Source of the DNA: a virus | Taxonomy: Duplodnaviria > Heunggongvirae > Uroviricota > Caudoviricetes | Virus record (IMG/VR): IMGVR_UViG_3300028914_000001 | Span: 189,489 to 253,488 of that record | Length of the DNA: 64,000 bases | Reading direction: 5' to 3' (one strand) | Notes under the pieces: model-generated | Database searches by the model: none | Told to the model about the DNA's origin: nothing | What the model saw: only the letters and a program-made list of their open reading frames with translations | Position numbers and translations under genes: made by a program | Part shown: positions 21,998 to 57,205 of the stretch, piece after piece | How the letters are laid out: the number at the start of each line of letters is the position of its first letter | Numbering within the stretch: position 1 is the stretch's first letter

Positions 21998-22639
21998 ATG
22001 AATGACTTACTGAAAACCTATAAGACGTTTGTCGATTCGGTCTATGCCAACTTTGGCAAGGCTGCTGCAAAACCCATTATCAGAGAAGGGTTCAAAGCGT
22101 TATGTGAAGCTATTGACGATAACATGGTCAAGCTGGTCGAGTACCTAAATCAACCAGCTGCTACGCCAATACATAACTCTGATGGCGTTCTGATGACAGG
22201 GCGTAAGGCTTTCAACTACTTCGAGAACGCCTCTATAAAAGAAGGAATGTGGGGTGTTCATTTTACCTACCTAGAACCATTCTATTATATATTGGAAGAG
22301 GGGTTTTCTAACGGAACGACTAATTTGGACCAACTTGCCTATACAGGAAACTACGAAGGTGGGCGAGGAAAGGATGGATGGTTCTTTGCACTTCCATTAG
22401 ATAGCAAATACTTGAAGTCGTATGACATGGGTTACGGTGACTACGGGTTCCTTATAAAGACTGATTGCGTATTGGTTGACCACTTGGGCGATGGTGATAC
22501 TGAGATGTTGTTCCGTGGCAGTGATGTAATTGAAATGATACCTTTCTATTACGACGAAGACTCCGAGATGTGGATATCAAAGTCCGACGGGGCTGAATAC
22601 GCTACTCTTGAAGAGTTAATCGCTAAGTACGCCAAATAA
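21998..22639 (+). CDS. leader-tagged protein, putative ADP-ribosyltransferase-like fold
   Basis: VHFT...ILEEGF...GWFFA...YG...E pattern; F-x25-E leader; GATAAACTA upstream. Confidence 0.45.
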   Translation: MNDLLKTYKTFVDSVYANFGKAAAKPIIREGFKALCEAIDDNMVKLVEYLNQPAATPIHNSDGVLMTGRKAFNYFENASIKEGMWGVHFTYLEPFYYILEEGFSNGTTNLDQLAYTGNYEGGRGKDGWFFALPLDSKYLKSYDMGYGDYGFLIKTDCVLVDHLGDGDTEMLFRGSDVIEMIPFYYDEDSEMWISKSDGAEYATLEELIAKYAK

Positions 22640-22659
22640 GTGGATTGTTACCTGTTTTC

Positions 22660-22689
22660 AGCCGACCTGCAATAGTGGTCGGCTTTTTT
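22660..22689 (+). terminator. intrinsic terminator
   Basis: AGCCGACC...GGTCGGCT followed by T tract. Confidence 0.75.
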
Positions 22690-22740
22690 GTTGCTGGAAT
22701 AATATATTTTAAGCTAGAATAAAGATTGGAGGAAACCGAT

Positions 22741-23193
22741 ATGGTATCGGCTGGCCTTTTGATAACAGACGGCGAGAAGTTCCTTGTGGAGCTGCCGTTG
22801 CACCAGACTCCTGGTGAACACCATTTTGATTTGCCCAAGGGTCACGTCGAGGATTTCGACAGTGACTTTAGGGGCACTGCGTTTAGAGAAGCTAAGGAAG
22901 AGACTGGTTACGATTTTGACTCTTATAAGGACCGTGCATACGCATTGTGTAATGAACCTGTCAGCTACATCAAGGGCAAGCAGATTGTCCTGTACCGTCT
23001 CGACCTGACGAAAGAAGAGATGCCTAGTATCGGCGAGTACAAGTGCCAGAGTTTCTTCCCGGACAAGAGGACGGGCAAGAATGTTCCTGAGGTTATTGGC
23101 TATGCCTACAAGCCGCTTTCCGAAATCAGGAAGTGGCTCTTCAAGGGTTATAGCCGCACGTTTGACAGGCTCGGTATTTTCAAGGAAGGATAA
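22741..23193 (+). CDS. NUDIX hydrolase (no leader)
   Basis: DLPKGHVE...AFREAKEETG; ATG follows GGAGG. Confidence 0.9.
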   Translation: MVSAGLLITDGEKFLVELPLHQTPGEHHFDLPKGHVEDFDSDFRGTAFREAKEETGYDFDSYKDRAYALCNEPVSYIKGKQIVLYRLDLTKEEMPSIGEYKCQSFFPDKRTGKNVPEVIGYAYKPLSEIRKWLFKGYSRTFDRLGIFKEG

Positions 23194-23693
23194 TGTCACT
23201 GTTTGAAGTCATCGTCTATTCGCTCGGGATATTCCCCATGCTCCTTGTACTCGGAATGATTGCGAGGGAGTGGTGGGTGTTCCGTAAGAATAGGGTTAAG
23301 GGAAGCTCTAAGACCAAGGGCGAGCCGCCTACACCAGTTCTCCCGAAGGCAGAGTTAGCAAAGTCTGATTTCGATGACATAGCGAAGAAAAAGCGGGAGG
23401 TCGAACTCGCCGCAGAGATACGCCGCATCCTTGCCAAGTCGGTTACACGTCAGGGCGAAGGTGAATACGACTTCGACGCAAACAAGCTTACCGCAGTTGA
23501 ATACCAGCTTCTTTTGAACTATGCCAAATCCCGCAAGGAGGAACTTAATTCCTATGTGGAGATGTGCAACAAGATAAGTGAAGAACCCGAAGCTGATTGC
23601 AGCGAGGAAATGAAATTGATTTACGGAAACATCGGCCTTATCGAATTGGCTAAATTCGTCGAGGCTTTCTCTGACAAAGCAAATCGTTGGTAA
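23193..23693 (+). CDS. hypothetical membrane-anchored protein
   Basis: N-terminal hydrophobic helix; translationally coupled (TAATG). Confidence 0.7.
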   Translation: MSLFEVIVYSLGIFPMLLVLGMIAREWWVFRKNRVKGSSKTKGEPPTPVLPKAELAKSDFDDIAKKKREVELAAEIRRILAKSVTRQGEGEYDFDANKLTAVEYQLLLNYAKSRKEELNSYVEMCNKISEEPEADCSEEMKLIYGNIGLIELAKFVEAFSDKANRW

Positions 23694-23704
23694 TGGAGGC
23701 AAAA

Positions 23705-25063
23705 ATGAACAACGATAAATACCTAAACATAATGGAATTCCTGGCAAAGGCGCTTTATGATGTCGGTGCCACGGTAAAGCATATCTACAAGGAAGAGCAT
23801 CCTGCGATTCCGCCTATCCCGACGACGCCGCAGCCAGTGCCGCCTAGTCCGCCTAGGTACACTGTCGAACAGGAAATCCCTTTCCCGCCAGCGCCGAATT
23901 GCCCGCCACCCGTGGTGGTCAGACAGCCAGAACGCTATGGTGGTCTTGGTTTCAAACCGCTTATGAAGCCGAAGGAACCCTGGTTTGATAAGCAACGTCC
24001 GATACCTGGCCCGAACCAGTTCTGCAACATGCAGGACTACACCTTCCAGCAGTTGAACGGTAATGTCCCGGCGGAAGCTACCATCTTGGCTGACCCGTTC
24101 ATGAAACCGAACCAGAAAGTGAATCTTGAATCGAATCCCGATTATTTTGGCTTTGACCATAACAAGAACACCCCAATACGGATGAAAACCATGGTTGACA
24201 CCGCTGATGGACACCCAGAGCCGATTGGCAATCTGATTAAGGAACACCCGGCGGCTCTTGACGCAGCTAAAACCAATGTGCAGAAGATGAATCCATCCCT
24301 CGGTATTTGTCAGAACCTGAGCAACGGTAAGATAGAACGGGAAATCGAGTCCCTTACCAAAGCGTTGAACGATATGACTCTTATGGGCAAACCGGGTTCT
24401 ATGAGCGAGGTGTCCAATAAGCTCGTCGGCCTAACTTTTGCTCGTACCTATCTCAACTTCCTGCCGAATGAAACTGGAAAGAAATTCATTGTTAACGAAC
24501 TCAAAGATAATCCAGTTGCACTCAAGGCTTTCAACGATGCCGTCGACGAGAATGAAGGAATGAGAGCTAAGGCTATTGCTGAGCGTCAATATGAAAGTCA
24601 ACGTGTCATGTCGCAACGTGGTATCAGTATCGGAAAGGATTTAAAAGCCTCGATGGACAATTTCTATAGCCCTAAGCCAGATGAACTTATGGCTAAGCAG
24701 GTAGACTTTCCGACAACTCCGCAAGACTTAATCAAAGCTGCCATGACAAAAAAATACCTGAAAAGCATCGACGCAAAGAAAACCGTAGGTAAAATGACCG
24801 ATATGCTGGATACATGCAACAACTTGGCTAAATCTCCCGCAATACCTGGAAACGAGGCAATGAAGGAAGCCGAAATGTCGCTGACCGAGGAAAACTTGAA
24901 GAAGGATGCATCGGAGATAAAGGCAGATGACCGTCCAGTAATACCTGAAAAAGAGGAAACTCCCGATGCTCCGGCTGAACAGCCGAAAGAAAACGTCAAG
25001 GAAAAGAAATTGAAAGCGAAAGCTAAGGAACAGAAAACATTAGCCAATTCTAACAAGGAGTAA
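23705..25063 (+). CDS. hypothetical Pro-rich protein
   Basis: Long ORF with GGAGG before MNNDKY. Confidence 0.75.
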   Translation: MNNDKYLNIMEFLAKALYDVGATVKHIYKEEHPAIPPIPTTPQPVPPSPPRYTVEQEIPFPPAPNCPPPVVVRQPERYGGLGFKPLMKPKEPWFDKQRPIPGPNQFCNMQDYTFQQLNGNVPAEATILADPFMKPNQKVNLESNPDYFGFDHNKNTPIRMKTMVDTADGHPEPIGNLIKEHPAALDAAKTNVQKMNPSLGICQNLSNGKIEREIESLTKALNDMTLMGKPGSMSEVSNKLVGLTFARTYLNFLPNETGKKFIVNELKDNPVALKAFNDAVDENEGMRAKAIAERQYESQRVMSQRGISIGKDLKASMDNFYSPKPDELMAKQVDFPTTPQDLIKAAMTKKYLKSIDAKKTVGKMTDMLDTCNNLAKSPAIPGNEAMKEAEMSLTEENLKKDASEIKADDRPVIPEKEETPDAPAEQPKENVKEKKLKAKAKEQKTLANSNKE

Positions 25064-25066
25064 AAA

Positions 25067-25336
25067 ATGGCAACGAAGAAAACGAAGACCTATAACTTTG
25101 GAAAAGCACTTGAAGCCTTGAAGGGCGGTAAAACTATCCGTCGTCAGGGTTGGAACGGAGTCGGTATCTTTATCGCTCTCCAAGTTCCCGATAAGAAGTC
25201 CAAGATGAGCCAGCCGTACCTCTACATCGACACCCTCGGTTTGCAGACGACAAACCCGAAGGCTCCGAAGGGTCGTGTACCGTGGGCACCGAGCCAGACT
25301 GACCTGCTTGCCGAAGACTGGGAAATCATCAAGTAG
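25067..25336 (+). CDS. DUF2829 / Tad2-like anti-defence nucleotide-signal sponge
   Basis: FGKALEALKGGK.IRRQGWNG...PYLYI...PWAPSQTDLLAEDW is the DUF2829 signature. Confidence 0.85.
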   Translation: MATKKTKTYNFGKALEALKGGKTIRRQGWNGVGIFIALQVPDKKSKMSQPYLYIDTLGLQTTNPKAPKGRVPWAPSQTDLLAEDWEIIK

Positions 25337-25356
25337 GAATTTTCCCCACACAAATA

Positions 25357-25384
25357 AAGCCTCCGTGTTACACGGGGGCTTTTC
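25357..25384. terminator. bidirectional terminator
   Basis: AAAGCCTCCGTG-tta-CACGGGGGCTTTT between convergent genes. Confidence 0.75.
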
Positions 25385-25406
25385 TGATGTTTCACGTGGA
25401 ACAATT

Positions 25407-25991
25407 TTAGAACTTGATACCTTCCCTCTTGAAGGTCTTGTCAAACTCTGGCCATAGCCACTTGCCTATTTCCTTCAATGGAAGATATTCGTAGGAGCAT
25501 GCTTCTGGCATTGCGGCGTTCTTCTTAGGGTCATGGAAGTATGACTTGCAGGAATAAGATGTCAACGGTGGAAGCTCTTTCAGATTTATCCTGTAAAGCA
25601 TCAGGTTGTTTCCTTTACGGAATGGCACCTGCTTGCGGAAAATTCCCTTGGCATCGTTGTAATACTTATGCCAGTTGTACCCGGTTTCTTCCAACGCTTC
25701 CCTGAATGCGGCATCTTTTACACTTTCGCCATCGTTCTCGACGTGGCCTTTCGGTAGGTCATACTGGTGTGGCTTTCCCTTCTTGTTTCCTGTCGGAAGT
25801 TCTGCAAGGAATACTTCACCATCGGTGATGAGAAGTCCAGACGAGCATGACGGATGTTCCTCATTGTTTCTCGGGTCTGCAAATTCAAGCAGGGTCTTGG
25901 CTAAATCCTTGACAGCTTCAAACTGTGCCTTTGATGCAAGTATATGCTTGGCTGACTCGTTGAATGTATCTATGACATATTGTGGGGTCAT
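25407..25991 (-). CDS. NUDIX hydrolase with N-terminal F-x25-E leader
   Basis: DLPKGHVE...AFREALEETG; paralog of 22741 with about 47 extra N-terminal residues. Confidence 0.9.
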   Translation of the reverse strand: MTPQYVIDTFNESAKHILASKAQFEAVKDLAKTLLEFADPRNNEEHPSCSSGLLITDGEVFLAELPTGNKKGKPHQYDLPKGHVENDGESVKDAAFREALEETGYNWHKYYNDAKGIFRKQVPFRKGNNLMLYRINLKELPPLTSYSCKSYFHDPKKNAAMPEACSYEYLPLKEIGKWLWPEFDKTFKREGIKF

Positions 25992-26017
25992 TTTAGGTCA
26001 CATGTTAAATCTAATGA

Positions 26018-26026
26018 TAGTTTATA
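26018..26026 (-). promoter_or_regulatory. putative late promoter TATAAACTA
   Basis: Recurrent motif upstream of 25991. Confidence 0.7.
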
Positions 26027-26040
26027 TTCCAAAAAAGACT

Positions 26041-26072
26041 AAAAAAGGAGCCTGCCTTGCGGCAAGCTCCCT
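26041..26072 (-). terminator. terminator after major capsid gene
   Basis: GGAGCTTGCC-gcaa-GGCAGGCTCC followed by T6. Confidence 0.8.
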
Positions 26073-26100
26073 TTCAGTTCCGTTTAAGGAATTCGAGTGA

Positions 26101-27594
26101 TTACCACTCTTCTTCCTTAGCAGCCGTACCGAACGGACGGTCGAGCGTGTGGCCAGCCTTGTCTGCAACACCAACGGTGTCGAGAGTTACGCCCACAGTC
26201 GGACCTTCGTTAGATTCCCACGGGATGTCACCAGTGAAGGAAACACCGAGGAGGTCGTTGTTCACGAAGCGAACAACACGGTAGAACAAGCCGCAACCGA
26301 GCAAGTTGCTGACAATGGCGTAACGGCTCTTCACGATGAGACGTGGGCTTCCGTCTTCCTGTCCTGCAGTCTTGCAGAAGATATACGGGATGTACGGCAT
26401 GAAGATGATACCAGATTCGCCCTGACGTGGTCCCTTGTAACCAACGAGAGCGTAGTCCTGCCAAGAATAGATATCCTGGTAGAGCTTAATCTGACCGTTC
26501 AGGAGAGAACCAGCGTCGGAAACGCCACCACCCGGCTGAACAGCGGCATCTGTACCGAGGTAAGTCGGGATATAGATACCAGAGTTGAGAGTAGAGATTG
26601 CAGCAACGATGCTCGGAGAGCAGATTGCAAAGTTACCAGAGCCCATGCGGGTCGTAAGAGAAATCTTACGGGCAACTGCGATAATCGTGTTCACGATACC
26701 GCCAGCAATCTTTTCAGCGACCCAACGGCCATCCTGGAAGTTTGCGTGACCAGAGAGGTCAACGGTGATAGCGGCTTCACCACCAAACATCGGGTTCTGA
26801 GCGACAGACACCATAGCAGCGAGGATTTCACGGTCGATTTCCTGCTGAATCTCAAATTGGAGACCTTCGAGCAAGAGTGCTTCAACGTCTTGGCCATGGG
26901 CTGCCGCCATATCCTGTTGAAGTTCCAAGGTGTAATGGCTCTTGATAGCCTTCGTACCAACACGGATAGCACCACTTACGACCTTGATAGAGGCCTTCTT
27001 GATGTTGTAGTGGCCAGTGTTTTCATCGTAGTAGTCACCAGTACCCGGCTGGTCGCCAAAGTGGTTGGTGAGGTAAGCGTTACCAGTCTTGTTGGCAGAG
27101 TTCATTGCAGCGCCATCATAAGACGGACCACCGAACGTGCCTTCACCGTAGTTGGAGAGCATTTCGCCAGCCATCGTTGTCCACGGGTTGAAGGTGCCCT
27201 TCACACCAGTGTGGTCAGACACGAGGTCATAACCAATTTCCTTCTTGAGACCCTTACGGAAACCAACAGTCTTCGGAGCTTCGTCGTCATAGAGGAAACG
27301 AAGTGCGAAGTAAATTCCGTTAGGAGTTGTGGTCGGGATGGTAGCTACGGTCTGCATAGCCAAGAGGTCAGGGAACTGACGACGTACCAGCGGCAAAGCG
27401 TACTGCTGGTATTGGGCTACGTCAGCACTGACGTTAGCAGATTCTGGGAGGAAACCCTTGTTGAGCTTGCACTGGGTTTCAAGAAGTGTGGAAACCACAG
27501 CAGCTTCAGCACGGGACTTGAGCTTACGACCAAGGTTGGATTCCAAAATTGGAGCCCACTTGCTCGTAGCTGACTTAGGTCTGAACTGTTGCAT
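26101..27594 (-). CDS. gp23: major capsid protein, T4 gp23-like
   Basis: KWAPILE, LVRRQFPDL, IYFALRFLY, YTLELQQDM..HG.D, EIDREI, PYIP, SRYAI; start MQQFRP follows AGGA (27612 is an alternative). Confidence 0.95.
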   Translation of the reverse strand: MQQFRPKSATSKWAPILESNLGRKLKSRAEAAVVSTLLETQCKLNKGFLPESANVSADVAQYQQYALPLVRRQFPDLLAMQTVATIPTTTPNGIYFALRFLYDDEAPKTVGFRKGLKKEIGYDLVSDHTGVKGTFNPWTTMAGEMLSNYGEGTFGGPSYDGAAMNSANKTGNAYLTNHFGDQPGTGDYYDENTGHYNIKKASIKVVSGAIRVGTKAIKSHYTLELQQDMAAAHGQDVEALLLEGLQFEIQQEIDREILAAMVSVAQNPMFGGEAAITVDLSGHANFQDGRWVAEKIAGGIVNTIIAVARKISLTTRMGSGNFAICSPSIVAAISTLNSGIYIPTYLGTDAAVQPGGGVSDAGSLLNGQIKLYQDIYSWQDYALVGYKGPRQGESGIIFMPYIPYIFCKTAGQEDGSPRLIVKSRYAIVSNLLGCGLFYRVVRFVNNDLLGVSFTGDIPWESNEGPTVGVTLDTVGVADKAGHTLDRPFGTAAKEEEW

Positions 27595-27693
27595 AATGTT
27601 ATCCTGTGCCATCTGGCACTGTTTGAGTTCTACTTTAAGTTTATTGAGGTATTTCGACAAAAAATTTTTTACCTCAAAATCTGCATTGAAATG

Positions 27694-27721
27694 AAAAAAA
27701 CCCTCCGAATGGAGGGTTTTT
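27694..27721. terminator. terminator after portal gene
   Basis: AAAAAAACCCTCC-gaat-GGAGGGTTTTT. Confidence 0.75.
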
Positions 27722-27745
27722 GAGGTGATTTTCGGCTGTATTTCG

Positions 27746-29449
27746 CTAGAAGGCTCCTGTCTCGGGTGGCGGGGCCATTCCGCCGAAGTCGCCCAAGGAC
27801 TCGCCTTCGCCGCTATCGGCATCGGTTTCTTCACCGAGGAGAACCTTCTGTTCATGCTCACGCCACTTGCGGTTCTGAGTGAGGTCGGCATCTGAAATAC
27901 CGAGACCGTAACGGAGACAGTATTCTTGGGAAAGCGGGTTGTTCGGGGCATCGTCCTTCACAGCAAATTCCATCATGCTCTGGAATACTGCGAGACGGGT
28001 AGTCCATACGTCGGCATCGATGTAGCTCTGGAAACCATTGCTTCGCTTGAACTTGATGTCGAAGTTCTCTTCCAACTTGATATTCTCGGTAAATTCTTTC
28101 CTTGTATTGAGCACCATGATGAAGAGTCTTACGAGAGCTTGTTCGAACGGTGTCTGGTAACGGTCAACGAGTCTAGCGAATGCTACTTCCGCCTGAGTAA
28201 CTTCACCAACCTTACCGTTGGAGTAGTTTACACTGTCGCCAGCCAATGCTGTGATACGTCCAGGAGGCACCATCAAGGCGTTGACGAGGTTTCTCTTGAA
28301 GAATTTGAGGTCGTCGATGTTGCCTAGCTGGTCACCGCCAGGTAGTCTTTCAATGGTTGAACCTGACGAACCGCCCTGAACAGGGATGATGAAGTGTTCC
28401 GATAGGCCGATTGCCTTACCCCAGTTGGTAATTTCACCCGTAGTGGCGTTATAGTCAATCTGACGGCTGAACATCTTGGCCTGTTCCTTCATTGTCGCTT
28501 CGGCCTGCGGTTTAGGCTGGCCAGCCACGTCAACTTTTAGAATCATCTTTTCGGAGCCCCAGAGAACACGGTACATAACAACGCTATCTTCAATCGTATT
28601 CAGTTGGTTGTGTGCCTTCACTGCTGGTTCGAGGATTGAACGGGGGTCGTTCACGCCGCCTGGGCCGTAAAGGTCGAGGGAGAGGAACAAAATCTGGTTC
28701 GGAGAGTAGTCGATGTAATTCTTGCTGGTATGTGCGTATGTTCCAGTAAGCATTTGACGATAGCCGATAATCAAGTTATCCTGGACGACCACAATCATAT
28801 TTTCGCCCGGTAACATGTTCAGTCCGACGATTTCATTGGTTTCCTCGTCATATACGACTTCGAGGAAGAGTCGGCCTTCGATGAGCATCTTTCTCATGTA
28901 CTGCCAAGCAGTCTTCTGGAACTTGAAAATCTTCCTGAGCACATCCCTTTTGAAGATTGTCTGCAAGCTCATCTTTGTCACTTCGGCAATTTCAGAATAT
29001 TCGTTGACCTGCAAGCTGCAAATGTCGCCCTTGTCGTCCTTATAGATTGCCTCATTGCAAATCTGGGTCAGAGACTCGTTCACCTCCGAGCGTGTGGCGA
29101 TGATGTTGTACTTCAACATGCGTTCCACGTTGTTTCGCCAGTAGAGTTGCACCTGATTTTCGGCGATGGTATCTTGAACCTTGGTGGGGTCAATCTGCCC
29201 GTCGTTAATCATGATGGTCGGCATGTAGGTGGAGAATCCGTCAGGTGACATACCGTTCGGGTACATCATCTGCTGGACGCCCTGTCCTACCGCATTCCTG
29301 GACCTTGATATTTCATGGTTCAGGTCTTCTCCGTTGAACATTCGGTCAAAAAGTTCGCCTCTCGGGTTATTTTCGCCGTAGTCTCTCACATGCGTCATGA
29401 CCATGGACGCAATGTTTTCGGGTCTTTTCTTTTTCGATGAAAAAAGCAT
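27746..29449 (-). CDS. gp20: portal protein, T4 gp20-like
   Basis: ICNEAI, NQLNTIEDSVVMYR, LPGGDQLGNIDDLKFF...ALMVPPGRI. Confidence 0.93.
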   Translation of the reverse strand: MLFSSKKKRPENIASMVMTHVRDYGENNPRGELFDRMFNGEDLNHEISRSRNAVGQGVQQMMYPNGMSPDGFSTYMPTIMINDGQIDPTKVQDTIAENQVQLYWRNNVERMLKYNIIATRSEVNESLTQICNEAIYKDDKGDICSLQVNEYSEIAEVTKMSLQTIFKRDVLRKIFKFQKTAWQYMRKMLIEGRLFLEVVYDEETNEIVGLNMLPGENMIVVVQDNLIIGYRQMLTGTYAHTSKNYIDYSPNQILFLSLDLYGPGGVNDPRSILEPAVKAHNQLNTIEDSVVMYRVLWGSEKMILKVDVAGQPKPQAEATMKEQAKMFSRQIDYNATTGEITNWGKAIGLSEHFIIPVQGGSSGSTIERLPGGDQLGNIDDLKFFKRNLVNALMVPPGRITALAGDSVNYSNGKVGEVTQAEVAFARLVDRYQTPFEQALVRLFIMVLNTRKEFTENIKLEENFDIKFKRSNGFQSYIDADVWTTRLAVFQSMMEFAVKDDAPNNPLSQEYCLRYGLGISDADLTQNRKWREHEQKVLLGEETDADSGEGESLGDFGGMAPPPETGAF

Positions 29450-29455
29450 AATTTC

Positions 29456-29668
29456 CTACCTGGGGTACTTAAATCTGATGCCTTCGAACATCACATAAAA
29501 GGTTGGTTTACGTTCGGATATGTAGAATGACTTTAACGATTCGTTGAGTATGTTCTTGGACAAAAGTCTCCTGTTGTTAACCTCCGCATCGACTATCGTG
29601 CGGAAATCACACAAGTCCACTTGGAAGACTGGAAGACCGTTGTATCTGTATAATTCACCCATAGTCAC
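29456..29668 (-). CDS. small hypothetical protein
   Basis: Lies between a late motif and the portal gene. Confidence 0.55.
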   Translation of the reverse strand: MTMGELYRYNGLPVFQVDLCDFRTIVDAEVNNRRLLSKNILNESLKSFYISERKPTFYVMFEGIRFKYPR

Positions 29669-29699
29669 ACAATAAATTATATTTTTGGTGATTTATCAA

Positions 29700-29708
29700 T
29701 AGTTTATA
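29700..29708 (-). promoter_or_regulatory. putative late promoter TATAAACTA (portal operon)
   Basis: Recurrent motif. Confidence 0.7.
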
Positions 29709-29717
29709 CCCCATGCG

Positions 29718-29746
29718 TTGATAGCGCTGGATGAAAAATGTATTTT
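29718..29746 (+). promoter_or_regulatory. sigma70-type promoter
   Basis: TTGATA-N17-TATTTT. Confidence 0.5.
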
Positions 29747-29781
29747 ATCGATGTAAGTACCTTTATTTTACAGGGATTATC

Positions 29782-30117: not shown

Positions 30118-30118
30118 T

Positions 30119-31012: not shown

Positions 31013-31021
31013 CGCCACGAT

Positions 31022-31030
31022 TATAAACTA
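31022..31030 (+). promoter_or_regulatory. putative late promoter TATAAACTA
   Basis: Recurrent motif upstream of 31054. Confidence 0.7.
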
Positions 31031-31053
31031 TTTTTTGATTGAAATGGTGAATT

Positions 31054-40971: not shown

Positions 40972-41001
40972 GCCCGCCATAACGATGTGGCGGGCTTTTT
41001 T
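40972..41001. terminator. terminator between convergent genes
   Basis: GCCCGCCAT...GTGGCGGGC followed by T6. Confidence 0.75.
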
Positions 41002-41596
41002 ATGCAAACCAGAGATTTATGGATGATATGTCCGTCGAGATGTCATTGAACATTTCGTGGATTTCATCGAGGGTGTATTTCTTGGATAGTTCGTACTTGT
41101 CGTCGAGGGTGCTCGGGTCCACATCCCTATATTCGCATAGATATCCATTCATGTTTTGGTCCGTCTTTTCATCCCATATTACGTACGAAAGCAACCCTTT
41201 GAAATTAGCCCTGACATCTATGCAGAAGTCGAAGTCCGATGATGTACAGTAAAGATAGGCTCTCGGGAAATTATCATCGCTGGGATTGTATTCTTTGGAC
41301 TGTCTTATCTCAAACCCACTTCCACACCATTCATCGTCCAGAAACTCTGCGAGTTGTTGAAGAATTTTTGAGTGTCCGCCATTGCTAGCGAACAGGGCTT
41401 CCGCCTTTTTTAGGGCTTCCTCGTCTACCGTGCTCTCTTCGCCATCTTCTAGCCCATCTTGCTCGTAAGCATCGTATTCTTTTTCGAGCTGTTCACCGCC
41501 CTCCGATTCGAGGCATATTTTTCGCAGCTGAATGATGGTTTCCTTTGCCGTCGGAGTGAGGTTTAACTTGCTGATTTCTGATTCGAATAGGTTCAT
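41000..41596 (-). CDS. acidic leader-tagged protein (putative internal head protein)
   Basis: Start MNLFESEI lies downstream of the late motif; F-x25-E leader. Confidence 0.75.
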   Translation of the reverse strand: MNLFESEISKLNLTPTAKETIIQLRKICLESEGGEQLEKEYDAYEQDGLEDGEESTVDEEALKKAEALFASNGGHSKILQQLAEFLDDEWCGSGFEIRQSKEYNPSDDNFPRAYLYCTSSDFDFCIDVRANFKGLLSYVIWDEKTDQNMNGYLCEYRDVDPSTLDDKYELSKKYTLDEIHEMFNDISTDISSINLWFA

Positions 41597-41620: not shown

Positions 41621-41629
41621 TAGTTTATA
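41621..41629 (-). promoter_or_regulatory. putative late promoter TATAAACTA
   Basis: Recurrent motif. Confidence 0.7.
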
Positions 41630-48739: not shown

Positions 48740-48751
48740 ATTTTCTATAAT
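48723..48751 (+). promoter_or_regulatory. consensus sigma70 promoter
   Basis: TTGACA-N17-TATAAT. Confidence 0.85.
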
Positions 48752-48756
48752 ATGTG

Positions 48757-49475: not shown

Positions 49476-49482
49476 TGTTAAC

Positions 49483-49953
49483 CTAGGTGAACTTGTATTC
49501 CATGACAGTGTAGTGCCCATAGCTTGTCAGGTTTTCGATAAGGAATTCCTTTATCCGTTCGATATCCCTGATGAAGTCACTTGTGTTATAGAATGCAAAT
49601 GCTTCTTTGGTGTTCATCAGTAGTTTATCCTTTACATGGTAGACTAAGTCCGTGAACGGGCGTTCGTGTAGCATGATATCATGGATAAAGGTGTCATGCC
49701 TGTTTTTTGTATTGGCTACGGCATTTATGGTTAGCTTGAAGTAATCGACAAACGGGAAAATCAGTCCTCCCTGACCATCGCATGAGGTTATGGTTCCTGA
49801 CGGTATCTGCTGGATTCCCTTCTGCATCACGTTATACTGATGTTGGCGTTCAAGGATATTGTCAGTTTCACCGAGTATGAAACTCTTCCTGTACAGAGGG
49901 TGTTCGAGCATGTTGTTCGCAGCAAAGTAGATGTATTTAGATACCATAGGCAA
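49483..49953 (-). CDS. GIY-YIG/T5orf172-like protein
   Basis: YIYF...ILGETDNILERQHQYN...KEAF. Confidence 0.45.
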   Translation of the reverse strand: MPMVSKYIYFAANNMLEHPLYRKSFILGETDNILERQHQYNVMQKGIQQIPSGTITSCDGQGGLIFPFVDYFKLTINAVANTKNRHDTFIHDIMLHERPFTDLVYHVKDKLLMNTKEAFAFYNTSDFIRDIERIKEFLIENLTSYGHYTVMEYKFT

Positions 49954-49969
49954 TTCACGTAAGTCTGGC

Positions 49970-49978
49970 TATAAACTA
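49970..49978 (+). promoter_or_regulatory. putative late promoter TATAAACTA
   Basis: Recurrent motif. Confidence 0.7.
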
Positions 49979-50001
49979 TATTTTGAAAATGGAATTCTGA
50001 C

Positions 50002-50505
50002 ATGCTCGACCTAAAATTATCTGTACAGCAGCCGATGGAAAATGTCTATCGAATCTTCGCTTACCCTGCCTATGCAAATGAGGGCGAATCTGGTGTCGCT
50101 CGGGCGATGGTAGTTAAATCTGGCGATGCGAACTTTCTATGCGACTTCGTCGTCAAGGATGAAGAGCGTGGCCATGGTGTCGGGACAATCCTTCTCGACA
50201 TGCTGATGGACCAGTTTGATATCAACTGCCTTACCGTCGAGAAGGGAAACGACATCGCCAAGCACATGTATGAAAAGGTCGGTCTGACCGATGATGAACC
50301 CGTCGATATCACACTGTTCAATAAAAATGGCGGACATGACCAGCATTGCATGTTGATGTCATCGTACAAGTTGAGCGATGATGAAAAGAAGGCGTTGGCA
50401 CGCCTACTGAACGAAGTGACAATGAAATTGTTCAAGAGTGTCTATGTAAATAAATATAACGCATCTGACCTGGATGTCGATGCGTTGTTAGATAGGTTAG
50501 GCTAA
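50002..50505 (+). CDS. GNAT acetyltransferase
   Basis: FVVKDEERGHGVGT, N..AKHMYEKVG. Confidence 0.85.
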   Translation: MLDLKLSVQQPMENVYRIFAYPAYANEGESGVARAMVVKSGDANFLCDFVVKDEERGHGVGTILLDMLMDQFDINCLTVEKGNDIAKHMYEKVGLTDDEPVDITLFNKNGGHDQHCMLMSSYKLSDDEKKALARLLNEVTMKLFKSVYVNKYNASDLDVDALLDRLG

Positions 50506-50506
50506 T

Positions 50507-52285
50507 TTATTCAACCTCTGGCCAGTTAGTCGAATTGGCTACACGACTCATTCCATCGAAGTGTTCTTCGTAGGTGCCACGAGTGTCATCGTCCTGTTCC
50601 AGCTGGTCGAGAACGGTATCGAGCGGAGTCTTTCCAGTCTCTTCATTCGGCGTGGTCGCCCATTGCTTGAATGGTAGCGGGTTTTCATGCCGAGGTTTCT
50701 TTACGGTTCGTTCACGAGGCAACGGGGTGTCGTCACCCATCATCTCACGCCTGAAACTCTCAAATCTGTATTCTCTGTCTGACATCGTTTCGACGACTTC
50801 TACATACATATATTCATCGTACATTTTCTGCAGACGGGATAGCACCTTGTCTCGATTGAAAATAAGCCCGTTACGCCAGATACGGCCATCCACGAGCTGA
50901 ACACTGTTGCTTCCCAGATATCTACCAGTTTCATATTTCTTTGTTATGAAGGTAATCGCTTGGAGTACCTTCATATTCTTCTTGATGGCTTCATTTATCG
51001 CTGCTTCGGCTTTTTCTGGTTGGAGTTCGCATCCATAATAGTTCAGCAACTCAATGAAAGTATCAATATCTAAATTTTCTGTTTCAATGAATTTGCCCAA
51101 TGTCATATTTGCGTAATTCGGGTTGCAATTTTCAAGGAACTCTTTCACTTTCATCATAGTATGTCGGTACGATTGATGTTCGCAGGTTTCCTCGTCCAGA
51201 AGCGGCATAACGTCCACCTGATGCGAGCGTTCTATAATTTTAGCCATGCCGTCCTTGATATAACGAACGACTTCGTCGTTGTTCGTAAGCAACTCGGTCA
51301 ATTCCTTGGATACCAGTTCTTTCATATCATCGGGATTTGTGCCAGTTACGGTAGCTGTTAAGAAATCCATTAGTACCTTAGATTTTCCTTGTAGAAGAAC
51401 CTCAATGGCATCAGGTTCGTTTTTATGCTGCGGAGTATTATATACAGGAGATATATATACCGTAATGAGAGGCGGATGGAATGTAAGCTTAAACTCAAAG
51501 GTGCGTTTGAAGTTGCCGGTGAACCTATACCAATCTTCATTAAGGTAAAAGTTAAGCAAATGCAGTAGATGGCCGTAATCTTCCTCGACTTCATTTTTCA
51601 CGTCGAGTGCTTCCAAACACGGCTTGCTGCAGGATTCGTTAAGAGGTTCCTTTGATTTCGGGACTGGCTGGGCCTCCTTGATTTTCAAACCAAAATACTT
51701 TTGGAAATTCTGGCGGAACTTGTTAATTGTGGCTTTGTCAACTGGTTTACCACTTGTCGATTTGAAAAACGGGAGTATTTCTTCATCGAAGTTGATAGGT
51801 GAGTTTGACTTCGACCACTCTTCAACTCGCTTCAATATAGCCTTTCCATTTTCACCAAAATCCTTTATTAGGGCATTTTTTACTGTCTCTTTGCAGCCGT
51901 TCAGATATCCAGTAAACTCTTTCATCAGTTTCTTTGCGTCGATTTGATTCTCGTTAATGTTTTGCTGAGTGTTTTGTTGTGCGGGCTCTTGTTGCTGATT
52001 CGTATTTGGCTGAGGTGGTTGCTGTGCAGGCTGTTGTTGTGCATTTGCCTGAGCTGGTTGCTGAACAGGCTGCTGTTGTGCATTTGGCTGAGCTGGTTGC
52101 TGAACGGGTTGTTGTGGCTGCGTCTGAACAGGCTGTCGTTGTGCCTGTTTTTGACCCGGTTGCTGAACTGGTTGTTGAGCGGGTTGTGCCCCGGCTTCCA
52201 TACAAATATTCCTTAGGGATACGATTTCATCCACGATATATCCGGGAAGATTCAATTTTCGTATTTCTGATTCAAACAACGTCAT
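50507..52285 (-). CDS. leader-tagged Gln-rich protein (putative internal head protein)
   Basis: Start MTLFESEI; F-x25-E leader; QQP(V/A) repeats. Confidence 0.75.
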   Translation of the reverse strand: MTLFESEIRKLNLPGYIVDEIVSLRNICMEAGAQPAQQPVQQPGQKQAQRQPVQTQPQQPVQQPAQPNAQQQPVQQPAQANAQQQPAQQPPQPNTNQQQEPAQQNTQQNINENQIDAKKLMKEFTGYLNGCKETVKNALIKDFGENGKAILKRVEEWSKSNSPINFDEEILPFFKSTSGKPVDKATINKFRQNFQKYFGLKIKEAQPVPKSKEPLNESCSKPCLEALDVKNEVEEDYGHLLHLLNFYLNEDWYRFTGNFKRTFEFKLTFHPPLITVYISPVYNTPQHKNEPDAIEVLLQGKSKVLMDFLTATVTGTNPDDMKELVSKELTELLTNNDEVVRYIKDGMAKIIERSHQVDVMPLLDEETCEHQSYRHTMMKVKEFLENCNPNYANMTLGKFIETENLDIDTFIELLNYYGCELQPEKAEAAINEAIKKNMKVLQAITFITKKYETGRYLGSNSVQLVDGRIWRNGLIFNRDKVLSRLQKMYDEYMYVEVVETMSDREYRFESFRREMMGDDTPLPRERTVKKPRHENPLPFKQWATTPNEETGKTPLDTVLDQLEQDDDTRGTYEEHFDGMSRVANSTNWPEVE

Positions 52286-52313
52286 ATATGCCAGCAAAAT
52301 CTTAATCTGATTA

Positions 52314-52322
52314 TAGTTTATA
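52314..52322 (-). promoter_or_regulatory. putative late promoter TATAAACTA
   Basis: Recurrent motif. Confidence 0.7.
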
Positions 52323-52345
52323 GCCTCGGGTGGATTATAAATGAA

Positions 52346-52371
52346 ACACCCACGAGATAGCCCGTGGGTGT
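52346..52371 (-). terminator. intrinsic terminator
   Basis: ACACCCACG...CGTGGGTGT hairpin followed by TTCATTT. Confidence 0.6.
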
Positions 52372-52393
52372 ATGTTAATGTGTTGATGGTAGA

Positions 52394-54217
52394 TTAGCTT
52401 TTGTTGCCTTTCTTCTGTCTGAATCGGAGAACAGCAACTTGTGCATTCATCTGAGCCTTTTCGTATGCGGTTTGCTCATTGTTTCCTTTCTTTATATATT
52501 CTGCCATAGCTTTCTTTTCGGCATCGTCATAAACCTTCTTCTCGTCTGGGGGAAGATTCATGTAAGATATTTTTCCTGACATGTACTGGGTCGAGCCTTG
52601 GGGTTGCTTCGGGTTCTGCTGTTGCTGTTGAACTTGCGGTTGTGCCTGCGGCTTCTGAGGTGTTGTTTGGTTTACAGGTTGTTCCGTACCTTTCTGCTGT
52701 GTTGGATTTGCTTTGTTTTGCTGGGCCACTTGTTGTGGCTGTGCGGCATTTTGAGTTTGATTATTGTTTCCCATGTTGTCAATCACCTTGTTGAGTGCGG
52801 CCTGACCTTCTTTGGCCCATTCGCCTTTTTGCATCTTGGCGAGAGCCTCCCTTGCTGCTTGGTCAGCCTTTTCAACTATCATGCTTTTGGGTGTCTTTTT
52901 ATCGACAGAGTATATTGTGATGTAATTCTGTTTGGTCTGGTCGAAGAACTTCTTTTCAGCGGCGTTTCGTGGTCCGTTGGTTGTATATGCAGTCTGTTGT
53001 CCACCCTTCTGTACATTAGTTCCTGTATTTACTTCCTTCTGTTTCTGTTGCATTGCGGCAATCTGATTTTGAGTTCCTTGCGGGTTCTGCCTCTGGAAAA
53101 CTGGGGCGATACCGTACTGCTTCCAGTTATTGTATTCTTGCTGGGAGATTATGTTGTTTTTAAGGAATTTCTGAGCCTGTGCTTCGTTAAACTTCTTGGA
53201 AGTTACATTTTGTGCCTGTTGCTGCGGCTGTGCTTGCTGTGGCTGTGCTCCTTGCTGTTGAGCTGGCTGTGCATTTGCGGGAACCTGAAGGTTACCGCTG
53301 AATACAGATGCTACCTGCATATTAGCCTTCTGCAATGCGGCGAGCGTCTGCTTTCCGATGAGGCCATCCTGAGATACACCTAGCTGAGCCTGTGCTGCTT
53401 GCACTTTTTTCTTTGCTTCGTTAAGGAGTAGGTTGAATGCTTCCTTGGTGTCATTGTCCATCTTGCCTGTTGCATTGATGTTTTCTGTTGCCTGAATTGC
53501 CTTGATTGTGTTAGGACCGAGTACGCCATCAGTAGCAAGTTTCAGGTTTGGATTCCTTGAATTTAGGAAATACTGCACGGTTGCGACATCTGCACCTTTC
53601 CTGAGCTGAGGTTGCTGTTGCTGCTGAGGTTGCTGTTGCTGAGGAGCCTGCGGTTGAGCTTGCTGTTGTGGTTGCTGTTGCGGTTGAGCTTGCTGTTGTC
53701 CGTTTGCCGCAGGTCCTGATGTGCGGACTTGGCTCGGTTCCCTTGTCATGCCCTTCGGAACTTGCGTCTGAGCTTGCTGTGCTGCTGGTTGTGCGGCAGG
53801 AGCACCTTGCTGCGGAAAGATATTATAGGACGACGGGTTGTTGAAATCCATTGCCTGCGGTTGATTACGCTGACGTGCCGGGTCTACAGATACTTGTTGC
53901 TGAACTTGCTGTTGTCCGTTTGCCGCAGGTCCTGATGTGCGGACTTGGCTTGGTGCCCTTGTTGTGCCCTTTGAAACTTGCGGCTGTCGGGTCTGCTGTT
54001 TTGCAGGTTGTGCAGCAGGTGCAGCGTTTTGTGGAAAGACATTATAAGACGACGGGTTGTTAAAATCCATCGCCTGCGGTTGATTCCGCTGACGAGCTGG
54101 GTCTTTTTCATCGCCTTCCGCTTCTAGGCATATATTGTTAATGTTCTTGATAGCGGTTTTCATCTCCGCTGGAATGTGCAGCGTATCAATAGACGCTTCA
54201 AAAAGAGATTTTAACAT
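52394..54217 (-). CDS. leader-tagged Gln-rich protein with two peptidoglycan-binding-like motifs
   Basis: GADVATVQYFL...DGVLGPNT and VQAAQAQL...DGLIGKQT; F-x25-E leader. Confidence 0.75.
   Translation of the reverse strand: MLKSLFEASIDTLHIPAEMKTAIKNINNICLEAEGDEKDPARQRNQPQAMDFNNPSSYNVFPQNAAPAAQPAKQQTRQPQVSKGTTRAPSQVRTSGPAANGQQQVQQQVSVDPARQRNQPQAMDFNNPSSYNIFPQQGAPAAQPAAQQAQTQVPKGMTREPSQVRTSGPAANGQQQAQPQQQPQQQAQPQAPQQQQPQQQQQPQLRKGADVATVQYFLNSRNPNLKLATDGVLGPNTIKAIQATENINATGKMDNDTKEAFNLLLNEAKKKVQAAQAQLGVSQDGLIGKQTLAALQKANMQVASVFSGNLQVPANAQPAQQQGAQPQQAQPQQQAQNVTSKKFNEAQAQKFLKNNIISQQEYNNWKQYGIAPVFQRQNPQGTQNQIAAMQQKQKEVNTGTNVQKGGQQTAYTTNGPRNAAEKKFFDQTKQNYITIYSVDKKTPKSMIVEKADQAAREALAKMQKGEWAKEGQAALNKVIDNMGNNNQTQNAAQPQQVAQQNKANPTQQKGTEQPVNQTTPQKPQAQPQVQQQQQNPKQPQGSTQYMSGKISYMNLPPDEKKVYDDAEKKAMAEYIKKGNNEQTAYEKAQMNAQVAVLRFRQKKGNKS
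53690..54103 (-). repeat. tandem internal duplication (~73-aa period)
   Basis: DPARQRNQPQAMDFNNPSSYN(V/I)FPQ...PSQVRTSGPAANGQQQ occurs twice, 219 nt apart. Confidence 0.9.
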
Positions 54218-54245
54218 ACAGATACCCTATATTGTATTCTGACTC

Positions 54246-54254
54246 TAGTTTATA
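54246..54254 (-). promoter_or_regulatory. putative late promoter TATAAACTA
   Basis: Recurrent motif. Confidence 0.7.
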
Positions 54255-54260
54255 GCGTCA

Positions 54261-55889
54261 CTAACCTGCTTCAACAGTGTTGATGGCTATCATGGTGTCG
54301 CTGAAATTAGTCTTTACTCCGAACATTCCTTTGTCACCTTTGTCGTACAGGGCGAAGTAGAAGGAATATATAGTTTCCTTGTTCGGGTGAATAAGGTCGG
54401 ATACAAAGGTTTTGTACTTGCTTGATGTATGGTAAGTAAAGTATAGGCGGCCATTCATCATTCCCCAGTCAAACCATACTTCACCCTCGGGTATTACCGT
54501 ACCGTCAGGCAGCGTAGTTTCGTCATTGCTGAGGTACTGGAATATGGTATCACCTGGGGTATCCTCGACAAACTGTATCGTCGCCTTGAACGTATATGAC
54601 GACTCGATGTCGCCGTTTGCGTTGTCGCCAAACCAGTTGAGAATCTTGCTCCAATCGACGTCATCCTCCACCGCATACCCGCCTTCGACTTCCTGACCAT
54701 TTCCGGGAGCGATGTTCGGAATGAACTTTCGTGTATCGTCGTTGACGGCAACGAAGTCACGCCCGAATCCGCTAAGGTCGCTCTCGTGAGAATTATCGTA
54801 GTCGAAGTTGAAGCGGAGAAGGTCGAACGACGGGACTTCCGAAGGTTTCGTGATGTCCTCCGTCACCGATTCGCAATAGGTGTAAACGGGAATGCCGTTG
54901 GCATCAAAATCTTTTGGAAGAATCTTGTAGTCGGTATTGGGGTCATCATACGGAAGACCTTCCGTATCCTTGTTGTATTCGCCGATATCACAGCGTTTCA
55001 AACCTTCGTGGTAAGTCGTTGTTGTGAAACGGTCGAACAGGAGCAACTGTTTTAGCGATACATCCTCGTAATACTTGCTGCCGTCCGCATCCTGTTTCTG
55101 CATAAGAGTCGTCGACAGCGTGTGTAGAATAGAGTATCCTTCCCTGATGGTCGGGCACACTGTTTCCCACAGCTTTTTCTTCTGCTGTATGATTTCGCTC
55201 GGGTAGACGAGTAGCTGTTCCTTGTGGATTAGGTCCTCGTCGATATTGAAGTTCATCTCGGCGTACTTAATCATCTCTGGGGTCTCGTACGGCCTGTGGT
55301 AAACACCGTAGCAGTCAATAGGATAACTCACCTTGAAAATCTGTTGCTGTGCGTCTGAGTCAGTAACATCTTCGTTCAACTCTGTCGTGTTGCTGCTGAT
55401 GACTACTTGAACAGGCCTAGGAATTTCCGGGGCGAAGTCCCACTCCTTAATGACTATTGTCCTGTATTCATTGAAGTACGGCTCGATGTTCTCCTTTATC
55501 TGGAAGATATCGGAGATGTTGTCAGCCTGAAATTGCAATTCAAAGTGGAATACATACGGGGTCGGCTGGATGTCACGAATCCATCGGTCGGCTGACCTAC
55601 AGAAAATCTCCCTCGCATAGGTAGGCTGCGGTCTGTTGGTCGAGTCTGGGCTGTTGCTCACGAACCTGATTGACCCTATTGGATAGGGAACGGTTAGCTG
55701 CTTATACTGCGTGCTGGACCAGAAGTTGGTAAAATTGGCATTGTTGTGGGTGATGATGGGAATTTTTGCACTTCTTGAGTATGTAGTACGATACATGTCG
55801 TCGTATTTGTTGACATACATGTTATTGAACATGTCTATCAGTCCAATAAGGATTTTCTCAATAGTTCGTACGTAGTAAAATGGTCTCAT
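54261..55889 (-). CDS. gp15: tail sheath stabiliser/terminator, T4 gp15-like, with C-terminal extension
   Basis: FYY.RTI...DMFNN...KIPI; PTPYVFHFEL...DIFQIKENIEPYF. Confidence 0.75.
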   Translation of the reverse strand: MRPFYYVRTIEKILIGLIDMFNNMYVNKYDDMYRTTYSRSAKIPIITHNNANFTNFWSSTQYKQLTVPYPIGSIRFVSNSPDSTNRPQPTYAREIFCRSADRWIRDIQPTPYVFHFELQFQADNISDIFQIKENIEPYFNEYRTIVIKEWDFAPEIPRPVQVVISSNTTELNEDVTDSDAQQQIFKVSYPIDCYGVYHRPYETPEMIKYAEMNFNIDEDLIHKEQLLVYPSEIIQQKKKLWETVCPTIREGYSILHTLSTTLMQKQDADGSKYYEDVSLKQLLLFDRFTTTTYHEGLKRCDIGEYNKDTEGLPYDDPNTDYKILPKDFDANGIPVYTYCESVTEDITKPSEVPSFDLLRFNFDYDNSHESDLSGFGRDFVAVNDDTRKFIPNIAPGNGQEVEGGYAVEDDVDWSKILNWFGDNANGDIESSYTFKATIQFVEDTPGDTIFQYLSNDETTLPDGTVIPEGEVWFDWGMMNGRLYFTYHTSSKYKTFVSDLIHPNKETIYSFYFALYDKGDKGMFGVKTNFSDTMIAINTVEAG

Positions 55890-55911
55890 AAGGCATCACC
55901 TAATCAATGAA

Positions 55912-55954
55912 TAGTTTATAATGTCTGGATGCCGAAGCCTGAAATTATAAACTA
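55912..55954. promoter_or_regulatory. back-to-back divergent late promoters
   Basis: TATAAACTA at 55912-55920 (-) and 55946-55954 (+). Confidence 0.75.
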
Positions 55955-55978
55955 TGATTGATTACTTATGGATGAGTC

Positions 55979-57205
55979 ATGACCCCAGAAGAACAGTTCA
56001 GACAGGTAGTATCCACACTCAATATACCGAAAGTGCAACTAGAAGCGATTTGCGACCTACACTCCGCAGTCTACGAGGCTATGGATTTGAAAGGAATCTA
56101 TGACAAGTTGTCCCATCTGGACAATTACCCGAAGATTAGCAAGGCGATTAAGCTTGGTGGGGCTGCATTGATTGGAGGATGCCCGGTAGGTGGCGTGTGT
56201 AACACTGACTGGAACAAGGTGGCTGAGGGATTTGGCGGTGCCGACAAGCCCGTAGAGCAGTGTATAGACCAGCCGGAGAGTGCATACGACGAACAGGATA
56301 CGGTTTTCGACTATAAGGGCAACCCAGGTGTTGTCGATACCAATTTCACCGTAAAGACGGAGCCTAAGGCGGAAGAAACGCCTAAGGCGGAAGAAACGCC
56401 TGAGCCGAAAGAAACGCCTGAGCCTAACGAGGAAGTGAAGGAGGATGAGGATGATGACCTTGTCAGGGATACATTCTTGGTGAAGTTCCCGACACCATCT
56501 TCATCCGAATCGAGCGACGATGCTCTAAGGAAGTTCATGATGACGAATCTCTCCAGTGTATTCAAGGAAACCCATACACCTCAACAACAGGCTGCCCATA
56601 TCGAGCGCATCCTTCGTGCGGTCAAGAATGTGGCCAAGATTACGTCAAGTCGTGGAATCGGCGAAGCCGAGTTGCTCGCCATCATGTGTGTCGAGAGCAT
56701 GTACAACGACAAGCCGAAGACAACGAAATACAGGGGACTCGCCCAGCTGGGTGACGATGCAATGGACGATGCAAGGAAATATGCAAGAAGGTTCGGTCTG
56801 GATGCGTCAAAGATGCGTGACCCCGAGATTGTAGAGGATGCAGTGAACCTTGCCGCTGGCTACCTGTTGTACCTCATGTACCGTACCGACCGCAGCAACA
56901 AGGTGAAGCCTGACGGGAATGACGACAAGGAGATTGGTAACATGACCTACGCCATTGCCTGTTATAACGGAGGCATAGGCACGACCAAGTCAAAGTACCA
57001 TAACAATAAGGAACTTAGTGTTCCTATGCTTTACCGAATGGTTGAACGTAAAGAACTGACCCCCAACCAGGCAGTGAAAGTGAGGGGTTCGATGAAGGAG
57101 GCGTTAAGCTATCCGAAAAAGGTATTCAAGGTGCTTGATTACTTTAAGAGTATCGGATTGCCAACGCACTTTGGTTCGGGAAATGTATATTATCGAAAGA
57201 GGTAA
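55979..57205 (+). CDS. leader-tagged lytic transglycosylase (SLT-like)
   Basis: AIMCVES, GLAQL, AAGYL, ACYNGG, YPKKV; F-x25-E leader; (P/K)EETP repeats. Confidence 0.8.
   Translation: MTPEEQFRQVVSTLNIPKVQLEAICDLHSAVYEAMDLKGIYDKLSHLDNYPKISKAIKLGGAALIGGCPVGGVCNTDWNKVAEGFGGADKPVEQCIDQPESAYDEQDTVFDYKGNPGVVDTNFTVKTEPKAEETPKAEETPEPKETPEPNEEVKEDEDDDLVRDTFLVKFPTPSSSESSDDALRKFMMTNLSSVFKETHTPQQQAAHIERILRAVKNVAKITSSRGIGEAELLAIMCVESMYNDKPKTTKYRGLAQLGDDAMDDARKYARRFGLDASKMRDPEIVEDAVNLAAGYLLYLMYRTDRSNKVKPDGNDDKEIGNMTYAIACYNGGIGTTKSKYHNNKELSVPMLYRMVERKELTPNQAVKVRGSMKEALSYPKKVFKVLDYFKSIGLPTHFGSGNVYYRKR

Follow-up and report, generated by a model that had tools for sequence, protein, structure and literature searches.

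The window analysed here, a 64,000-nucleotide stretch of viral DNA, corresponds to bases 189,489-253,488 of one 422,150-bp IMG/VR virus record with direct terminal repeats. It carries six genes whose products each bear, close to the N-terminus, a leader of 27 residues ahead of the body of the protein. These leaders had been quoted in a sequence-only reading of the window, and translation confirmed all six of them in place. The nine-base box reported upstream of every one of these genes was also verified at its coordinates, as TATAAACTA for five genes and as GATAAACTA for the gene at 21998. The six genes are listed below by window position; coordinates elsewhere in the record are marked as genome coordinates.

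21998..22639, + strand: gene with a class B leader (leader 22028-22108; GATAAACTA at 21980-21988).
25407..25991, - strand: leader-NUDIX gene, directly downstream of the capsid gene (leader 25884-25964; TATAAACTA at 26018-26026).
41000..41596, - strand: leader gene with an acidic body (leader 41507-41587; TATAAACTA at 41621-41629).
50507..52285, - strand: leader gene with a Gln/Pro-rich body (leader 52196-52276; TATAAACTA at 52314-52322).
52394..54217, - strand: leader gene with a PG_binding_1 domain (E 3e-7; leader 54122-54202; TATAAACTA at 54246-54254).
55979..57205, + strand: leader gene with an SLT lytic transglycosylase domain (E 2e-8; leader 55997-56077; TATAAACTA at 55946-55954).

The gene at 41000..41596 starts at MNL (41596), as in relatives, and the longer open reading frame (ORF) listed for it is wrong.

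A hidden Markov model (HMM) built from the six leaders only was scanned against all 5,023 stop-to-stop six-frame ORFs of the 422-kb genome. It gave nine further matches at E < 1 (best 1.7e-5), each a few residues past an in-frame Met and most of them behind TATAAACTA. The sequence-only reading had predicted that such a whole-genome scan would hit N-termini of late genes, and the extra matches were indeed all N-terminal and in a probable late context. Iteration of the profile, with diverged members added by alignment, yielded a set of 26 leader ORFs (alignment A1). Every one of them has an in-frame Met 3-17 residues upstream of the leader, and 23 score at E <= 4e-3; the remaining three score weaker, yet they are N-terminal and plainly similar. 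With the iterated profile, E-values reached 1e-11 on the 5,023-ORF set, and the next matches (E >= 8) were not N-terminal and resembled noise. The leader genes are scattered across approximately 316 kb (genome 60-377 kb). A wide search of the leader profile against 1.84 billion proteins (cut-off E <= 1e-3) returned 90 matches, approximately 83 of which are true leaders on diverse bodies between 59 and about 800 residues long; these leaders all appear to come from kin of this phage. The 27-residue tag is thus present in larger number than the six copies originally seen, and the family is real and beyond chance.

The anatomy of the leader was derived from 68 non-identical class A leaders of this genome and the protein library (alignment A4). 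Position 1 is Phe in all 68, and positions 5, 8, 10, 18, 21 and 24-26 are hydrophobic in 88-100%, in agreement with the mostly hydrophobic character noted before for positions 5, 8, 18 and 21. Gly or Asn predominates at position 9 and Ser, Thr or Pro at position 11; Gln is found at position 14 in 62%, and an acidic residue at position 16 in 72%. At the end of the leader, Cys25 (P3) occurs in 71%, Glu27 (P1) in 91%, and Ala, Ser or Gly at P1' in 84%, giving the consensus [A/V/I]-C/L-[F/L/M]-E followed by A/S/G. The hydrophobic-x-Glu motif of a gp21-type cleavage site is therefore present at the end of the tag, with both P3 and P2 hydrophobic. In the predicted proteome, 17 copies of the strict form C-[FLMY]-E-[ASG] were counted where 5.6 would be expected; ten of these copies close a leader. 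The reported invariance of F1 and E27 held for F1, whereas Glu occupies position 27 in 21 of the 26 leaders of this genome.

An AlphaFold2 (AF2) model of a 33-residue segment, computed on the leader alignment, had a predicted local distance difference test (pLDDT) score of 89.5 and comprised a helix at 2-9, a five-residue loop and a second helix at 15-29, with a floppy end past helix 2 that carries the Glu. The leader is accordingly modelled, with high confidence, as a small helix-loop-helix hairpin in which the hydrophobic-hydrophobic-Glu site and the small residue after it are exposed. A Foldseek search of this 33-residue model against the PDB found nothing at E <= 0.001 (best E 3.4).

The six leaders had been treated as one group. 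Five of them belong together as class A, and that of gene 21998 belongs to a distinct sister class, B. A profile made from class A only misses class B (E 25), and an hhalign comparison of the two classes is marginal (P 0.011); the classes are alike in their first residues, their last residues and their exact length. Besides gene 21998, class B has one further copy in the genome (309,609-310,373) and also occurs in more distant relatives.

The box TATAAACTA occurs in 53 copies on both strands of the genome, compared with approximately three expected for a 9-mer. It precedes structural genes (baseplate wedge, tail sheath stabiliser, portal neighbourhood) and 17 leader genes, at a spacing of 12-50 nt in both groups. 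Among the leader genes lacking it, one has GATAAACTA and two have the other one-base variants AATAAACTA and TATAAACTG; those with no variant of the box directly follow genes on the same strand. The late promoter of T4 is TATAAATA, and since TATAAACTA resembles it, TATAAACTA is probably a late promoter as well. A 260-kb relative (L120-L132; capsid 61% identical) has the same late box, as TATAAACT[AT], and has no uniform leader; its late proteins open with varied segments that end in hydrophobic-x-Glu before Ala.

The bodies behind the six leaders had been described as unrelated. Pfam supports this for the NUDIX, SLT and PG_binding_1 bodies and composition supports it for the acidic and Gln-rich ones, while the label "ADP-ribosyltransferase-like" given to the product of gene 21998 is unconfirmed. 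The body of gene 21998 had no Pfam or PHROG match, and its AF2 model (pLDDT 57.8) was too poor for a fold search; its Atlas leads (0.90), to PARP/DarT and Arr clusters, make an ADP-ribosyltransferase a weak lead. The SLT domain of 55979..57205 is the sole SLT match in the genome. Across the 26 bodies of the genome, the Pfam families found were NUDIX, SLT, PG_binding_1, Amidase_2, SPOR and WG repeats, and the other 20 bodies had no Pfam family above the cut-off. PHROG searches with ten cargo bodies returned only amidase/endolysin families and one family of unknown function, the latter for the WG-repeat body. The bodies without a family include a 1,357-aa protein and one of 245 aa, whose Cys/His pattern is SWIM-like but scores below the Pfam cut-off. 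Most bodies open with an acidic or low-complexity linker. No transmembrane stretch was found in the bodies, none of the 26 having a 19-residue hydrophobic window. Of the leader genes, two that lie in tandem (genome 115245-116870 and 116874-118580) are true paralogues of one another. Two bodies contain an internal K-P-C-L-E motif followed by Ala or Ser, at residue 229 of 50507..52285 (window approximately 51599-51613) and at residue 464 of genome 116871-118571; judged by the motif, these are possibly second protease sites that would split the two bodies.

The same kind of body is found with and without the leader. The tagged NUDIX gene (25407..25991) has an untagged paralogue in the window:

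22726..23193, + strand: leaderless NUDIX paralogue with no late box (blastp E 5e-44).

The two proteins are 45% identical across the whole body, and the leaderless copy begins where the tagged body begins (residue 44 of the tagged copy). Likewise, a tagged Amidase_2 protein (genome 274,841-275,956), consisting of leader, Lys/Asp-rich linker and domain, has a leaderless, 30% identical counterpart with an endolysin-like layout at genome 118,568-119,353 (L076:5576-6361, - strand). The leaderless Amidase_2 gene lies within a same-strand run of leader genes. In several close relatives (L005:172-966; L006, L008, L037, L014), the portal and capsid genes are separated by one further leader gene that has a late box to itself; at that place, only a terminator and a promoter are present in this genome. 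The inserted leader in these relatives terminates in Asn-Asp rather than Glu. A 419-kb sister genome, whose capsid protein is 94% identical, has approximately 23-25 leader genes. Paired between the two genomes, leaders are 56-89% identical, and many of the bodies are 15-40% identical or without a match; in 14 of 23 pairings, conservation is clearly higher in the leader than in the body, for example 81-85% versus 27-38%. Because of the tagged and untagged paralogues, the inserted gene and the turnover of bodies behind kept leaders, we read the tag, on these comparisons, as a portable module.

The phage branches deeply within the T4 superfamily. Its major capsid protein belongs to the Gp23 family, and its prohead protease is a gp21-type Peptidase_S77 (genome 154,046-154,771, - strand; PF03420, 49 bits; phrog_207, E 2e-30). 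Other genes identified encode a baseplate wedge, a tail sheath stabiliser, an SbcC-like and a Dda-like protein. The capsid protein is at most approximately 30% identical to that of any cultured T4-like phage, and 65 relatives of it occur among IMG/VR contigs at 54-96% identity; the region of the SLT gene gave no match to cultured phages by megablast or tblastn. The head genes of the window are the following:

26101..27612, - strand: major capsid protein, Gp23 (PF07068, E 2e-65; phrog_138).
27746..29449, - strand: portal protein, directly upstream of the capsid gene (phrog_213, E 8e-69).

The start of the capsid gene is the ATG at 27612 or 27594 and not at 27951, the listed 616-aa ORF being over-extended. 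The shorter start is preferred because the ATG is preceded by the portal stop, a GC-rich terminator hairpin (approximately 27690-27720) and a variant box, AATAAACTT, at 27637-27645, and because stop codons lie upstream in relatives. The capsid propeptide then consists of 12-18 residues followed by W-x25-E (27478-27558), ending in TLLE with Thr as the next residue, and the predicted cut lies no more than three residues from the position homologous to the T4 gp23 cut. The suggestion that the tag mimics this propeptide finds no statistical support (hhalign P 0.31); what the two sequences share is equal length and the same last residues. A short Gp23-like fragment with two in-frame stops (one TGA, one TAG), a broken second capsid-like copy, is found at genome 413077-413361.

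Three ORFs surround the protease gene (genome 153083-155805; L078:2427-5149). The 245-aa leader protein is encoded just upstream of it, with one untagged 59-aa ORF containing two cut-like motifs in between. Downstream lies an untagged 317-aa protein that is helical and charged and has three hydrophobic-hydrophobic-Glu motifs followed by Ala, all three kept in most or all of 12 relatives. From its position and composition, the 317-aa protein is likely the scaffold; a search of this genome with T4 gp22 as query found nothing. Co-folding of the leader (alignments A1 and A2) with the 317-aa protein gave a score of 0.00, which, as controls were not run, carries no weight either way.

Taken together, these features suggest that the leader is a long prohead-core (capsid) targeting propeptide that is removed by the gp21-like protease, as in the internal proteins and Alt of T4, and we regard this explanation as probable. 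In T4, Alt and the internal proteins are directed to the gp22 core by N-terminal propeptides while the shell is still open; gp21 removes the propeptides after Glu, and the proteins leave the head with the DNA (PMC9026906, PMC3012670). The diverse internal proteins of T-even phages have only the capsid targeting sequence (CTS) in common (PMC3012670, PMC9026906). By analogy, approximately 26 soluble proteins would be made late in infection with an N-terminal helix-loop-helix hairpin, and the hairpin would dock them into the assembling scaffolding core of a T4-type prohead. The gp21-like serine protease would then cut after the Glu of the end motif, just beyond helix 2, and the mature bodies would remain in the head and exit with the DNA. 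The delivered set would include the SLT transglycosylase, an amidase, peptidoglycan-binding proteins, a NUDIX hydrolase, possible ADP-ribosyltransferases and the acidic and Gln-rich proteins. Docking, cleavage at E27, retention in the virion and delivery are the steps that we infer. The earlier proposal of a portable capsid-loading tag is thus partly supported: the N-terminal position, the putative late box, the S77 protease, the end motif, the paralogue pairs and the turnover of bodies fit it, while a variable position 27 and a sixth leader of a sister class depart from it.

Several points weigh against this explanation. The phage is known only as an uncultured IMG/VR contig. Peptidoglycan hydrolases would be unusual within the head of a contractile-tailed phage. 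A search of the leader profile against T4 gp22, gp67, gp68, gp21, gp23, gp24, Alt and Inh, a set that did not include the ip genes, gave nothing significant. Relatives with a capsid protein approximately 60% identical have the same late box with class B leaders only, or with heterogeneous N-terminal segments ending in hydrophobic-x-Glu before Ala. The tag is 27 residues long compared with the ten of T4 (PMC9026906). In five of the 26 leaders, position 27 is Asn, Pro, Gly, Asp or Lys instead of Glu; three of these five have Glu27 in the sister genome. Since Asp at the cut position in T4 blocks processing and not targeting (PMC9026906), the non-Glu copies might be loaded and left unclipped.

A further difficulty is one leader that is internal to a longer frame. 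The genome ORF at 359,681-361,462 (L085:13278-15059, - strand) is a single frame of 593 residues comprising, in order, a conserved 55-residue N-terminal module, a domain of approximately 210 residues, an in-frame TATAAACTA, a Met, the leader and a 299-residue body. The box is read in frame as TAT-AAA-CTA (Tyr-Lys-Leu), and the Met lies seven residues ahead of the leader. Five relatives (P0012, P0023, P0025, P0032 and P0038) keep this layout with the middle domains and bodies swapped, and A-C-M-E motifs followed by Gly, or similar ones, recur between their modules. Either a late transcript beginning within the frame leads to an ordinary protein with the leader at its N-terminus, or the leader serves as a polyprotein junction as well.

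Other explanations were weighed against the same evidence. The tagged proteins could be the scaffolding core itself, degraded or expelled at maturation like T4 gp22, gp67 and gp68, with the leader as a core-assembly module. The encoding of a leader protein just upstream of the protease gene, beyond the 59-aa ORF and its two cut-like motifs, is in keeping with this idea, as are the acidic or low-complexity character of several bodies, which recalls T4 gp67, and the further internal cut-like motifs in some of them. Folded enzymes (NUDIX, SLT, Amidase_2) make up many of the bodies, however, and have their cut motifs at the leader end only, and the 317-aa protein after the protease is a better scaffold candidate, so that we judge such a core unlikely. 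It is also unlikely that the leader is a folding or assembly tag acting away from the capsid interior, by directing proteins to a chaperonin, docking them to the tail or baseplate, or timing the release of wall enzymes. The N-terminus of T4 gp23 is reported, as cited within PMC3012670 and PMC10052503, to direct fusions to GroEL, the capsid propeptide is equal to the leader in its W/F-x25-E length, several bodies act on peptidoglycan, and some leader genes flank tail genes. A conserved Glu with a small residue behind it at fixed distance is nevertheless explained by a protease site and not by docking, an endolysin-like amidase without leader exists for lysis, and no hydrophobic export signal or membrane segment is present.

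The remaining alternatives are contradicted by the composition of the leader, the radical-SAM check and the Pfam results. A Sec/Tat or signal-arrest-release (SAR) export signal is at odds with the amphipathic character and acidic positions of the leader, and with bodies that lack any hydrophobic window of the length given above. The Cys25 found in 71% of leaders could recall the recognition sequence of ribosomally synthesised and post-translationally modified peptides (RiPPs), with one maturase modifying many substrates; no dedicated maturase (radical-SAM/SPASM) lies near the tagged genes, the genome has two radical-SAM matches in all, NrdG and a MoaA/QueE-like protein, neither of them close to leader genes or of the SPASM type, and the leader genes are dispersed over approximately 316 kb, which makes this idea very improbable. 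Chance, or old paralogues that have stayed alike only at the N-terminus, has a negligible probability in our view: the two tandem leader genes are truly paralogous, but bodies fall into different Pfam families, two of them have leaderless paralogues, and the E-values down to 1e-11 go together with an N-terminal position in all 26 cases.

Capsid targeting by a cleavable propeptide, which we prefer, can be compared with known systems. As in the internal proteins of T4, an N-terminal tag ending in hydrophobic-x-Glu stands on unrelated proteins, in a phage with a gp21-family Peptidase_S77 protease, a Gp23 capsid protein and a T4-like late box, and the cargo set differs between close relatives. Unlike the T4 CTS, the tag here is a predicted helix-loop-helix, without detectable sequence similarity to the T4 core proteins searched, and it comes in two classes, A and B. 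There are approximately 26 cargo genes per genome compared with the three internal proteins plus Alt of T4, and the bodies are mainly acidic or enzymatic whereas the T4 internal proteins are small and basic. Encapsulin cargo-loading peptides and the helix-turn-helix coat-binding domain of the P22 scaffolding protein also provide short, portable docking to the interior of an HK97-fold shell; unlike the leader, they mostly lie at the C-terminus, and no protease cleaves them off. T4 Alt is a packaged ADP-ribosyltransferase clipped by gp21 at both ends (PMC9026906), and the proposed loading of an enzyme by a clipped propeptide and its delivery with the DNA resemble it, the product of gene 21998 being possibly, though unconfirmed, an ADP-ribosyltransferase too; the Alt propeptide has seven residues compared with 27 here. 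The giant phages SPN3US and phiKZ likewise have a large head carrying many proteins, with N-terminal propeptides cut after Glu by an S77-related protease, but these propeptides range from 20 to 254 residues, have the motif A-x-E, and no single shared leader has been reported for them (PMC10052503, PMC7411985).

More speculatively, one 27-residue hairpin address with its cut site may exist in three forms (class A, class B and the W-x25-E of the capsid protein), the cargo imitating the handle by which the capsid subunit holds the core. Approximately 26 fast-evolving proteins, including wall hydrolases, NUDIX and possible ADP-ribosyltransferases, would be loaded in this way, among them the product of a nested gene whose in-frame promoter and internal start would turn the tail of a longer protein into cargo, and polyproteins split at repeated A-C-M-E motifs before Gly. 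This extended scheme is doubtful as a whole. The loading principle is known from T4, and what is new is the length and fold of the tag, its division into two classes, how many cargo proteins there are and of what kind, and the nested gene. If targeting to the head is correct, the leader gives a list, readable from sequence, of the proteins that a 422-kb uncultured phage brings into the cell with its DNA: approximately 26 proteins, or about 0.94 MDa at one copy each, most of them without a known family. The T4 loading principle could then employ a longer, folded tag, and proteins that act early in host takeover or against host defences could be picked out as candidates by this tag without growing the phage. 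For loading foreign proteins into large capsids, such a hairpin of 27 residues, folded and with its defined site of cleavage, would also be a potential handle.

Some further observations concern the rest of the genome and its relatives. A homologue (P0095) of the 317-aa protein is assigned by one source to a Prevotella sp. metagenome-assembled genome, which is a weak hint at the host. The NrdG gene lies at genome approximately 321500-322099. At genome approximately 75531-77460 (L133:1006-2935), the radical-SAM protein (MoaA/QueE-like) adjoins a QueC-like gene, possibly for deazaguanine modification of the DNA.

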